From the IMG/VR virus record IMGVR_UViG_3300035501_000483: a DNA stretch of 33,526 nucleotides. One strand, 5' to 3'. The position numbers were made by a program, and so were the translations under genes. Position 1 is the first letter of the stretch; the number at the start of each line of letters is the position of its first letter. The notes beneath the pieces were generated by a model. It was not told where the DNA came from and did not search any database. It worked only from the letters and a program-made list of their open reading frames with translations. Below are positions 6,160 through 8,565 of the stretch, in pieces. This DNA comes from a virus.

Positions 6160-8565
6160 ATGTCTTATACTGCGTATGTTACTACTTTAAAGAATGTGCG
6201 TCCTCATCCCAATGCTGATCGTTTGCAGCTAGGTGATTGTTTTGGTAATACTGTTTGCGTGAGCCTTGAATATGCTGAAGGTCAAGTAGGAGTTTATTTC
6301 CCGACTGATGGCCAGTTGTCTGTGGAGTTTGCTGAAAAGAATAATCTTGTTCGGCGCAAGGATGAAGACGGGAACAATATAGGTGGATATATGGATCCCA
6401 ATAAGCGCAATGTGACTGCTATTAAGTTGCGTGGAGAGAAGTCCGATGGACTATTTCTTCCGCTTTCTTGTCTCGCATATGCAGGCGACGTTTCTAAGCT
6501 AAATGTGGGAGATACCATTGATGTTTTTAATGGACATGAGATTTGTAAGAAGTACATTCCTAATGTTCAGAATAAAACTGGTTCTCTTTCTCCTGGGAAT
6601 CATACTCGTAAGAAGAAAGTTCCTATTGCTCCTCTATTCGTTGAGCACGCTGACACTGAACAGCTTGCATATAATATGGGTGCTTTTAAGCCTGGAGACG
6701 ATGTTGAAATTACTTTAAAGATGCACGGATGTTTTATCTCTGGGACAAAAGTGCGTACACCAGATGGATTAAAAGAGATACAAAAATTAAAAGCAGGAGA
6801 TAAAGTGCTTGCTTTAAATCACAATACTGGGAAAATTGAAGCCACTAAAATTTTAAATATTTTTCATAACGAGCCCAGTAGCAAATGGAGAAAAGTTAAA
6901 ATTTCAAGAGAGGGATTAAGAGGAGATAAAAGAGGATATATTACTTGTACCCCTAATCATCCTTTTTGGAGTCAGGAACTTAATTGCTATATTGAAGCCA
7001 AAGATTTAAAGGTTGGGCAAACAATTCATTCATTGTTTGAATCTTATGTTTTAACTAAAATGCAAAAAGAAATTTTAATAGGCTCATATTTAGGAGATGG
7101 ATGCCTCTTAACCAATAATAACAGGGTGGCTTGGATAGAAGCTGGTTCTAAAGAAGAGCATCAAGAATATCAAGAATGGTTAAGTAAGATTACTCAAGGT
7201 TTTTATAATATTAAAAATGGAAAATACACATCTGGATATGGTACTACAATGATTAGAGGGACTACTCCTCATTGCGCAGATTTGTATAATTATTTTAACG
7301 ATATCGTTTATTTTGACAATAAAAGGAAGGATAAATTAAAAGAAGAACTAGTAAATAGATTTACTATATTGTCAGCTGCAATCTTATATATGGATGATGG
7401 CTCATTAACACATTCTGAAAAACAACAAGACAGAGCTTTAATAGCAATATGTGATTATTCAGAAAATGATGCTAATATTATTTTAAAATGTTTTAATAAG
7501 CTAAATCTCTATCCTGTTTATTATAAGGACTCCAATGGATATAACAGATTAAGATTTAATTTTGAAGAAGCTAAAAAATTCTTTGAATTAATTGCAGAAT
7601 ATATCCCCCCGGTAATGCAATATAAATTACCAAAAAAGTACAGAGAACGATATAAAGAATTAATTGATCCAGAAAAACATTATAAAGGATATGTATTATC
7701 TCCGCAAACTGTTCTTGAAAACGAAGAAATTTCTGAACTTCATAAAGAATATGATTTAGAAACTGAACTTCATAATTATATTGTAGGATTAAATATTGTT
7801 CATAATACTTCTCAACGTACTGGTTATTTACCTATTTTCCAAAAGTATAAGCGTTCTTTATGGGATAAGATTACTCATAAGACTGGAACTCCGATTTATG
7901 ATTGGGGCTATGTGACCGGCACTCGCCGCACTGTGTTGGAAGGAACTGATGGAGGTTTCTATGGCTCTAATGAGTTTCGTGAGCAGCACGCGAAACAGTT
8001 TGAAGGTAAATTATGGAAAAATGAAGAAGTTTTTTATGAAGTAGTTGGGTATACTACTACTGGACAAACTATTATGGGGCAATGCTCTAACAAGAAGTTA
8101 AATGATAAGGCATTTGTCAAGCAGTATGGTGATATTACTACTTTTGCTTATGGGTGTGAGCCTTGTCATTCTGATATGTATGTTTACCGTATGACTATGA
8201 CCAATGAAGATGGCCAAATTGTAGAGTACACTCCTGAGTTTATGCGTTATCGTTGTGAACAAATGGGTGTTAAGTGTGTTCCTGTTTTGTGGCGTGGCCG
8301 TATTCCTGAGAATCCAGAAGATGTAGATGGAGATGTTTCTGCTGGCGAATGGATTAAGGCGATCGCGGAACAATACTATGATGGGCCTGACCCTATTGGC
8401 AAGACTCATGTGCGCGAGGGTGTTGTTTGTCGCATTGTAAATCGTCCTAAGTTCGCGGCTTATAAGCATAAGAGCTTTGCTTTCAAATGTTTAGAAGGGC
8501 TGGTTAAGGCAACCGCAGAAGCCCCTGATATGGAGGAAGCAGATGGAATGGAGGAGAATGAATGA
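6160..8565 (+). CDS. Intein-containing RNA ligase of DraRnl/NgrRnl (Rnl5)-like architecture: N-terminal tRNA-binding OB domain plus a nucleotidyltransferase domain.
   Basis: N-terminus VRPHPNADRLQLGD is the classic tRNA_bind OB motif. Motif I K-M-H-G is split by an intein and resumes as T-S (KxHGT/S, Rnl2/Rnl5-like). RBS AAAGG. TGA stop. Confidence 0.6.
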   Translation: MSYTAYVTTLKNVRPHPNADRLQLGDCFGNTVCVSLEYAEGQVGVYFPTDGQLSVEFAEKNNLVRRKDEDGNNIGGYMDPNKRNVTAIKLRGEKSDGLFLPLSCLAYAGDVSKLNVGDTIDVFNGHEICKKYIPNVQNKTGSLSPGNHTRKKKVPIAPLFVEHADTEQLAYNMGAFKPGDDVEITLKMHGCFISGTKVRTPDGLKEIQKLKAGDKVLALNHNTGKIEATKILNIFHNEPSSKWRKVKISREGLRGDKRGYITCTPNHPFWSQELNCYIEAKDLKVGQTIHSLFESYVLTKMQKEILIGSYLGDGCLLTNNNRVAWIEAGSKEEHQEYQEWLSKITQGFYNIKNGKYTSGYGTTMIRGTTPHCADLYNYFNDIVYFDNKRKDKLKEELVNRFTILSAAILYMDDGSLTHSEKQQDRALIAICDYSENDANIILKCFNKLNLYPVYYKDSNGYNRLRFNFEEAKKFFELIAEYIPPVMQYKLPKKYRERYKELIDPEKHYKGYVLSPQTVLENEEISELHKEYDLETELHNYIVGLNIVHNTSQRTGYLPIFQKYKRSLWDKITHKTGTPIYDWGYVTGTRRTVLEGTDGGFYGSNEFREQHAKQFEGKLWKNEEVFYEVVGYTTTGQTIMGQCSNKKLNDKAFVKQYGDITTFAYGCEPCHSDMYVYRMTMTNEDGQIVEYTPEFMRYRCEQMGVKCVPVLWRGRIPENPEDVDGDVSAGEWIKAIAEQYYDGPDPIGKTHVREGVVCRIVNRPKFAAYKHKSFAFKCLEGLVKATAEAPDMEEADGMEENE
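6730..7806 (+). mobile_element. Intein (359 aa) with a LAGLIDADG homing-endonuclease domain.
   Basis: Starts with Cys (CFISGTKV...) and ends ...VHN, followed by Thr. TPNHPFW block B. Two LAGLIDADG motifs (LIGSYLGDGCL, LYMDDGSL). Confidence 0.75.

Follow-up and report, generated by a model that had tools for sequence, protein, structure and literature searches.

A class-1 LAGLIDADG intein at motif I of a predicted Rnl5-like phage RNA ligase

Results

An RNA ligase gene interrupted at its catalytic-lysine motif

The viral record IMGVR_UViG_3300035501_000483 supplies the stretch of 33,526 nucleotides analysed here (the window, itself part of a 52-kb JGI metagenome contig), which contains at 6160-8565 an open reading frame (ORF) encoding an RNA ligase-like protein with a 359-residue insert right after its nucleotidyltransferase (NTase) motif I. 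We read this gene as a ligase of the Rnl5 (DraRnl/NgrRnl) architecture that has been invaded by a mobile class-1 intein between Gly190 and Thr550, and we put the probability of this reading at about 90%. The predicted precursor has 801 residues and a calculated mass of 91.7 kDa; its gene ends in TGA, has no in-frame TAG codons and is preceded by a Shine-Dalgarno-like GGAAAGG about 12 nucleotides 5' of the ATG (Table 1). The identical precursor gene, with 0 nucleotide differences, is found on contigs of four samples (JGI and Logan). A megablast search with positions 5000-10000 of the window against deposited phages gave no match, and the phage is without a GenBank entry.

The insert was confirmed as a class-1 intein lying right after Gly190 of motif I by its profile matches, its junction residues and its intein-free homologues. 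Pfam profiles scoring above their cutoffs are LAGLIDADG_2 (E-value 4.7e-13, profile positions 1-168 of 168), PT-HINT (4.4e-12), Intein_splicing (9e-10), Hint_2 and Hint; the Intein_splicing match runs over intein positions 15-359 and includes the last profile position. The PHROGs family 'homing endonuclease with LAGLIDADG motif' matches the centre of the insert (1.8e-18), and the intein N-terminal model TIGR01445 scores 22.5 bits, slightly below its cutoff of 24.5.

A search of a large protein collection with the full precursor gave a set of 120 homologues, which falls into 54 intein-bearing alleles (the window protein and 53 others, of about 770-830 residues) and 66 intein-free proteins of 440-472 residues. 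Every long homologue has C-F or C-W after K-x-H-G and, further on, T or S after V-H-N, whereas all 66 short ones read LKMHGTSQRT(G/A) straight across the junction. In one intein-free ligase allele (L007) the empty site reads GAGATTACTCTAAAGATGCATGGC before and ACCTCTCAGCGTACTGGTTAT after the point of insertion. The residues of the splicing reaction are nearly invariant: Cys1, block B Thr74 and His77, Thr345, Asn349 and the terminal V-H-N are present in 54/54 alleles and Asp342 in 53/54, and position +1 is occupied by Thr in 40 alleles and by Ser in the other 14.

Joined in silico, the two exteins (6160-6729 and 7807-8562) form a protein of 442 residues that matches phrog_968, a phage 'RNA ligase' family, from end to end (E-value 1e-69). 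In tblastn the ligases of Bacillus phages PBC2, Kirov, Thrax1/3 and vB_BcoS-136, which lack an intein, align with it in one piece (49-53% identity, 96-100% coverage), and about 300 mycobacteriophage 'RNA ligase' genes match more distantly. An AlphaFold2 (AF2) model of the precursor, built from the 120 sequences, has a mean predicted local distance difference test score (pLDDT) of 82.6, with lower values confined to linkers and the two splice junctions. In a Foldseek search of the PDB with this model, the TliVMA, PhoVMA and PI-SceI inteins lead the matches to the whole intein (E-values 2e-12 to 1e-10), and bacterial intein-like (BIL) domains and mini-inteins also match.

A preliminary description, made from the sequence alone, had proposed an intein of 359 residues at 6730-7806, inserted at motif I, running from Cys to His-Asn before a Thr, with two LAGLIDADG motifs and a spliced ligase of about 49 kDa. 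Its coordinates and terminal residues are exact, both motifs are there (7066-7104 and 7369-7407), the profile search finds Hint/Intein_splicing matches with blocks A, B and F/G all present, and the calculated mass of the spliced product is 49.8 kDa. The intein-less ligase alleles that it suggested looking for exist, both among the homologues and in the Bacillus phages. One detail has to be amended: the intein does not begin one residue after the motif but directly follows Gly190, its last residue, four positions after Lys187.

Table 1. Features of the precursor gene and of its neighbours in the window
Feature	Position	Strand	Basis or remark
Precursor, Rnl5-like RNA ligase with intein	6160-8565	+	ORF translation
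N-extein, 190 residues	6160-6729	+	N-terminal OB domain, linker, first NTase strand ending in motif I
N-terminal OB domain, residues ~1-131, including H16-PNADRL	H16-PNADRL at 6205-6225	+	TIGR02306 (residues 10-197), model
N-extein linker, residues 137-152			Low confidence; secondary structure and pLDDT of precursor model
NTase motif I, T185-L-K187-M-H189-G190	6712-6729	+	Lys187 is the predicted AMP-accepting nucleophile
Class-1 intein, 359 residues (1077 nucleotides), 41.9 kDa	6730-7806	+	Junction residues, profiles, structure model
N-terminal Hint splicing subdomain, intein residues 1-105	6730-7044 (boundary approximate)	+	PT-HINT and Hint_2 on residues 1-100
Block A, CFISGT, with Cys1 = Cys191 (TGT)	Cys1 at 6730-6732	+
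Block B, T74-x-x-H77 (T264-P-N-H267 of precursor)	6949-6960	+
Double-motif LAGLIDADG endonuclease domain, I-SceI type, intein residues ~106-305	7045-7644	+	LAGLIDADG_2, Foldseek
LAGLIDADG motif 1, KEILIGSYLGDGC, LGD313G	7066-7104	+	Predicted catalytic Asp123 of intein
LAGLIDADG motif 2, LSAAILYMDDGSL, MDD413GS	7369-7407	+	Predicted catalytic Asp223 of intein
C-terminal Hint subdomain, ending His358-Asn359	7645-7806	+	Intein_splicing up to profile position 155/155
Intein blocks F/G, YDLETELHNYIVGLNIVHN	7750-7806	+
Intein C-terminus, CAT-AAT (His548-Asn549), then ACT (Thr550)	Ends 7806; Thr550 from 7807	+
C-extein, 252 residues and stop	7807-8565	+	Begins with +1 nucleophile Thr550; rest of NTase domain
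Candidate motif Ia, TGTRR	7915-7929	+	Tentative, by pattern
Motif III, VFYEVVGY	8029-8052	+	Named by pattern against DraRnl
Motif IV, HVREGVVCR	8407-8433	+	Named by pattern against DraRnl
Motif V, AAYKHKS, then short acidic tail	8455-8475	+	Named by pattern against DraRnl
Calcineurin-like metallophosphoesterase	3196-3972
cREC_REC 'cyclic-phosphate processing' domain protein	4795-5154
RNase_T-type exonuclease	5170-5985
Macro-domain protein	8942-9388
Calcineurin-like metallophosphoesterase	9485-10183		Metallophos
AAA_33 P-loop protein, polynucleotide-kinase-like	10509-10991		E-value 1e-19
Calcineurin-like metallophosphoesterase	10988-11551		Metallophos_2
NAD-dependent DNA ligase, complete	23861-25891

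The endonuclease domain and the movement of the intein

The endonuclease domain, modelled with pLDDT above 90, superposes over about 203 columns on I-SceI (template modelling (TM) score 0.75, root-mean-square deviation (rmsd) 2.6-2.8 Å) and on I-WcaI (TM score 0.71; rmsd 2.6-3.1 Å across both), and by this model it is an I-SceI-type monomeric double-motif LAGLIDADG enzyme, in line with the LAGLIDADG_2 profile match. In this it differs from the VMA inteins that lead the whole-intein matches. PI-SceI, TliVMA and PhoVMA, the archetypal LAGLIDADG inteins, likewise carry a double-motif LAGLIDADG endonuclease in frame within a Hint domain and interrupt their host enzyme at a motif for nucleotide binding, but they are only 10-19% identical to the intein in the window and reside in another host protein, and the endonuclease domain here is far closer to intron-encoded I-SceI and to the LAGLIDADG_2 profile than to the endonuclease domain of PI-SceI.

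Across 1431 pairs of alleles, intein identity and extein identity are nearly uncorrelated (Spearman 0.14). The discrepancy is plain in the two allele pairs that we compared at the DNA level. For P0028 and P0037 the inteins are 87% identical in nucleotide sequence and the exteins 59-65%, with saturated synonymous divergence (dS) in the exteins and an intein dS of 0.65 and dN/dS of 0.086; for P0016 and P0033 the inteins are 94% identical and the exteins 66-67%, with an intein dS of 0.27 and dN/dS of 0.078. These contrasts in identity, together with the dN/dS figures, mean that ligase genes of this family had long been diverging when inteins passed from one to another, and that selection has maintained the endonuclease, a conclusion that applies to the family and not to the window copy in particular.

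For the window copy itself, the indications are indirect. The nearest relatives of its extein, at 74-76% identity, are all intein-free, and in a neighbour-joining tree of the exteins the window allele falls in a 66-tip clade with 64 intein-free and two intein-bearing members; the nearest relatives of its intein (55-59% identical) sit in exteins just 40-60% identical. An independent invasion of the window lineage is the parsimonious reading of this pattern. We used only this local nesting of the window allele among intein-free ones. Fitch parsimony on the tree of 120 sequences gives three changes, which we do not take as a count of invasions because the sequences were retrieved with an intein-containing query, biasing the sampling of intein-free alleles.

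A rather unlikely, though the strongest, competitor to a mobile intein is a decaying or domesticated one, which still splices, no longer cuts DNA with its LAGLIDADG domain and is inherited vertically as a passenger. The sampling offers this alternative some room, as the closest intein in the sample is only 59% identical, an empty allele from the same phage lineage did not turn up and the identical gene in four samples shows no presence/absence polymorphism. What counts against it is the state of the endonuclease: the domain is full-length, confidently modelled and close to I-SceI in fold; the catalytic residues Asp123 and Asp223 are retained in 53/54 and 54/54 alleles, respectively, with the surrounding LAGLIDADG helices also conserved; and dN/dS for the endonuclease domain alone is 0.08-0.11 in the same two allele pairs, pointing to purifying selection as strong as that on the splicing domains. 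Near-identical inteins in strongly diverged exteins elsewhere in the family are, moreover, a signature of recent homing. The endonuclease domain thus looks functional, in keeping with the earlier prediction of a homing endonuclease that is probably still active.

The extein is Rnl5-like in architecture

The residues invariant in all 120 homologues, which by pattern fit motifs I, III, IV and V and tentatively Ia, include K187, H189, G190, S551, R553, G587, R589, E627, H750, E753, G754, K769 and K771; H16-R21 of the N-terminal domain is invariant among 41 close homologues. Motif I mirrors that of DraRnl (DRB0094 of Deinococcus radiodurans), 163-TEKLHG-168, in which Thr163, Lys165, His167 and Gly168 are each essential (PMC1807946). 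With the Naegleria gruberi enzyme NgrRnl (PDB 5COT, 6VT*), DraRnl shares with the window extein an OB domain followed by the NTase domain, no C-terminal module, and motifs III (..EVVG), IV (EGVV) and V (K-x-K), and the T-x-K-x-H-G form of motif I is that of DraRnl; in the extein only about 20 acidic residues follow motif V. Shuman's laboratory already lists mycobacteriophage members among the homologues of DraRnl (PMC4408790).

TIGR02306 (RNA_lig_DRB0094) matches residues 10-197, PF09414 (RNA_ligase) also matches, and the PHA02142 OB-fold profile PF21189 scores 21.6 bits on the N-extein, below its cutoff of 27. Because the spliced extein, searched against PDB sequences as a single sequence and as a 41-sequence profile, gave only marginal matches (E-values 0.04-0.5), the ligase class was settled by structure. 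In the Foldseek comparison of the spliced model with the PDB (an AF2 model from the 41 close homologues, of mediocre confidence at pLDDT 64.6), the top 13 matches are NgrRnl entries aligned over about 430 columns with E-values near 1e-11, and the next matches, T4 Rnl2 and archaeal Rnl3, have E-values of 5e-5 or more and involve the NTase domain only. With the model of the precursor, both extein halves are covered by a single NgrRnl alignment of 781 columns (TM score 0.57 normalised to NgrRnl).

These results bear out the earlier assignment to the architecture of DraRnl and NgrRnl. Relative to those two enzymes, neither of which has an intein, the extein is about 100 residues longer (in the linker, an insertion after motif I and the acidic tail) and only 16-21% identical in structural alignments. 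Since, in addition, its TIGR02306 score lies far below the cutoff, we file it as Rnl5-like in architecture, in a separate, longer phage clade (phrog_968), and not as a DraRnl orthologue. The preliminary description had also spoken of a tRNA-binding domain, a label that stands only as a resemblance of fold: Foldseek matches to MetRS-C, EMAPII, Arc1p-C and Trbp111 are weak (E-values 0.1-0.8, probability 0.8-0.9, from a low-confidence model), and Pfam tRNA_bind (PF01588) has no match on the extein at E<=1. The N domain of DraRnl has been described as PheRS-B2-like (PMC1807946), and the OB domain of NgrRnl contacts the ATP gamma-phosphate in lysine adenylylation (PMC7261155).

Several observations weigh against an Rnl5-type ligase invaded by a mobile intein. 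On the ligase side, TIGR02306 reaches 57.5 bits against an equivalog cutoff of 151.15, PF09414 is just at its threshold (27.1 against 27), the 41-sequence profile finds Rnl2 and NgrRnl in the PDB at E-values of only about 0.1-0.2, and the Foldseek TM scores to NgrRnl are low (0.3-0.57), in part because of domain orientation and insertions. On the intein side, the closest sampled intein is distant, neither a recent donor nor an empty site in the same phage lineage appears among the sampled alleles, and the retrieval bias of the 120-homologue sample makes any count of gains and losses on the tree indicative only. The contrast in GC content between the intein (29.1%) and the exteins (41-42%) is not decisive either, and we set it aside as a sign of foreign origin because GC content varies between 27% and 47% within the window.

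That the extein is instead a DNA ligase, or some other covalent nucleotidyltransferase outside RNA repair, seems improbable. Besides the missed TIGR02306 threshold, this alternative can draw on the ability of Rnl5 enzymes to seal nicks with a 5'-phosphate DNA strand and on the fact that their physiological substrates are unknown (PMC4408790). The His of K-x-H-G is, however, a signature of Rnl2 and Rnl5, as opposed to the K-x-D-G of DNA ligases (PMC1807946), and the best matches by structure (NgrRnl, T4 Rnl2 and archaeal Rnl3) are without exception RNA ligases. With a complete NAD-dependent DNA ligase encoded elsewhere in the window, a DNA-ligase role for the extein is unnecessary, and the genes around the extein are of an RNA end-healing type (AAA_33 kinase, metallophosphoesterases, cREC and macro domains).

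Protein splicing and the activity of the ligase

To judge from sequence conservation and the model, the protein has, in conserved form, every part that class-1 splicing and LAGLIDADG catalysis require. By the canonical class-1 pathway, a 92-kDa precursor would be translated first; Cys191 would undergo an N-S acyl shift, Thr550 would attack the thioester in a transesterification, Asn549 would cyclise with the aid of block B Thr/His and the penultimate His, and an O-N shift would follow, releasing the 42-kDa intein and a 49.8-kDa ligase with its motif restored to ...KMHG-TSQR.... During co-infection, the excised intein or the precursor would cut intein-free ligase alleles at the DNA of motif I, and repair of the cut allele would copy the intein in, a homing step that we infer from the evidence at family level.

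Only one β-strand of the NTase domain, bearing Lys187, lies upstream of the insert, and motifs Ia to V follow 359 residues downstream. Because of this anatomy the precursor is expected to be inactive or poorly active as a ligase until it has spliced. The preliminary claim that ligase activity strictly depends on protein splicing is a reasonable extrapolation that goes further than the evidence. An even bolder proposal, that the intein is a post-translational switch which keeps the ligase inactive until a condition of infection (redox state, metal or attack by host RNases) triggers splicing, we consider distinctly improbable. The position at the catalytic-lysine motif, several extra cysteines in the intein and the damage-response character of the gene neighbourhood would suit such a switch, yet none of them supports it specifically; were it true, the phage would deploy RNA repair conditionally.

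The least credible alternative, a non-intein Hint module (BIL or pretoxin-HINT) that cleaves the protein into two polypeptides without splicing, takes its appeal from PT-HINT being among the best Pfam matches and from a phmmer search of PDB sequences in which intein residues 1-100 align best with the BIL domain 2lwy of Clostridium thermocellum (E-value 1e-5), with the gp41-1 intein also matching, and we rejected it because BIL and PT-HINT domains have no homing endonuclease and are not placed inside conserved catalytic motifs, the junction has a C-terminal His-Asn with +1 Thr or Ser in all 54 alleles, the Intein_splicing match continues to its last profile position, intein-free homologues are colinear over the junction, and two half-NTase fragments make no ligase.

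A family of inteins at motif I of phage ligases

Among deposited phages, the best tblastn matches of the intein are 'RNA ligase' genes of cluster J mycobacteriophages, at 34-35% identity over 359 residues. Their inteins have been catalogued as cluster 73 (Phoebus gp158, Bobby, Dallas, Hannaconda, KashFlow and Beem), class 1 with LAGLIDADG, in a newly found intein host labelled 'RtcB-like RNA ligase, IPR021122' (bioRxiv 10.1101/2025.01.02.630785), and the DNA given there for the Phoebus insertion site is identical to that extracted here. The correspondence with the window is close in design: the cluster J inteins are class-1, of 357 residues against 359, with an in-frame LAGLIDADG domain, and are inserted at the same point of a homologous extein (ITQKLHG/CF...VLVHN/SSIR, slashes marking the junctions). 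The spliced exteins are 27% identical over 425 residues (E-value 5e-40) and the inteins 34% identical from end to end (E-value 4e-58). The differences are a +1 Ser instead of Thr, the strong divergence in sequence and the hosts, high-GC actinophage siphoviruses as against a metagenomic phage of 33% GC; moreover, the closest deposited-phage matches of the window extein are Bacillus phages and not cluster J. Phoebus gene 158 (L005, locus 1910-4312) is annotated 'RNA ligase' and the Hannaconda copy 'HNH endonuclease'. The K-L-H-G motif I and the homology to the window extein show, at the level of sequence comparison, that the cluster J host protein is an ATP-dependent Rnl5-type ligase and not RtcB.

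A further relative is gp164 of Pseudaeromonas phage vB_PpeM_KLEP7, annotated 'intein-containing RNA ligase' (L006, locus 2108-4231), whose intein is 31% identical over its full length (E-value 3e-26) and also runs from Cys1 to VHN/S. It is placed differently, after GEWAG in motif III (GEWAG/CFSY...VHN/SN), in an Rnl2-type ligase that has motif I (KIHGTN) near its N terminus and no significant similarity to the extein in the window. A metallophosphoesterase gene and a DNA ligase gene adjoin gp164. A literature search for RNA ligase inteins by name gave no match, and a 2016 survey of mycobacteriophage inteins lists no ligase intein.

The wider family became visible when the intein was searched exhaustively with phmmer in a 50%-identity library of 1.84 billion cluster representatives, with 174 matches at E<=1e-30 and 705 at E<=1e-10. 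We broke down the insertion sites for the 147 proteins (P0121-P0267) newly returned among the best 150 matches. In 120 of these 147 closest relatives the intein directly follows K-x-(H/D/N)-G; in at least 10 it lies one residue later (KLHGT/C...HN/SGRTG), and in some it follows K-M-D-G-E. Three ligases of 1131-1162 residues (P0124, P0128 and P0129) contain two inteins, the second of which in P0128 follows IYGELVG, that is, motif III. On these sequences, placement in motif I is the rule for this intein family.

Genomic neighbourhood

End healing and sealing classically rely on a kinase, a phosphoesterase and a ligase together, and all three kinds of gene surround or include the interrupted gene (Table 1). 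Domains of the cREC and macro types have been linked to phage RNA-ligase operons (PMC7824862). The ligase probably acts in a phage RNA-repair pathway with these neighbouring end-healing enzymes. Gyrase B/A and RNase H are also encoded further downstream, and an intein-free relative (P0094) has similar neighbours on its contig of 160 kb. The window contains no recognisable tRNA gene.

A small protein at 16894-17217 has an S-layer homology (SLH) domain (E-value 2.8e-8), which hints at a Gram-positive, Firmicutes-type host and fits the nearest extein relatives, which are from Bacillus and Lysinibacillus phages and from a Lachnospiraceae metagenome-assembled genome; no metagenomic relative bears any other name than Lachnospiraceae. 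Two other proteins are unusual in a phage, one of 675 residues with Major Vault Protein shoulder and Vault_3 repeat domains (43-2070, E-value 1.5e-22) and one of 479 residues of the SPFH/flotillin type (11570-13009), and their genes have the highest GC content in the window, up to 47%. A DUF2828/DUF7788 protein is encoded upstream on the parent contig.

In-frame TAG codons elsewhere in the window

The PIN_4 (13879-14589) and PhoH (14692-15186) regions form one frame divided by a single TAG at 14587-14589; with this codon read as Gln, the PhoH match rises from 57.5 to 94.9 bits and the Walker A motif is restored. The frame at 26547-27536 has eight TAGs and a GIY-YIG domain (E-value 1.5e-10), one of the TAGs standing at the Gln of 'YVGQS'. 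The frame at 27470-28465, also with eight, contains the repeat 'LTG-TAG-SFGRLVVL', for which a paralogous copy reads LTGQRFNRLIVL (LTGqSFGRL against LTGQRFNRL). Further frames with in-frame TAG lie at 15247-15879, 17626-18168 and 18259-18723; among 31 long ORFs, only 3 use TAG as their stop. A search of the window for a suppressor tRNA gave none. Several of these frames are continuous only with TAG as a sense codon, which suggests amber recoding, probably to Gln, in part of the genome.

The product of 26547-27536 is probably a free-standing GIY-YIG homing endonuclease. It adjoins the Cys-rich repeat protein of 27470-28465, which has a weak DUF2726 match below the Pfam cutoff. Both frames are further candidate mobile or selfish elements, visible only with TAG read-through.

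Discussion

The element in the window is a new, diverged member of an existing large family, whose insertion site had already been catalogued in mycobacteriophages, and current understanding of inteins is unchanged by these results. What they alter is the naming of the proteins concerned. The gene is best annotated as an intein-containing Rnl5-like RNA ligase, and not as a fusion or 'hypothetical' protein, and the 'RtcB-like' label that the preprint gives to the cluster J host protein is corrected here.

The mildly under-described aspect is the spread of motif-I ligase inteins in metagenomic phages. The family could be used to study the way in which an intein follows one catalytic motif through different ligase families, and it is a source of I-SceI-like endonucleases and of splicing domains suited to Gly at -1 and Thr at +1. 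Inteins seem to have in motif I of phage RNA ligases a major homing site that is hardly described.

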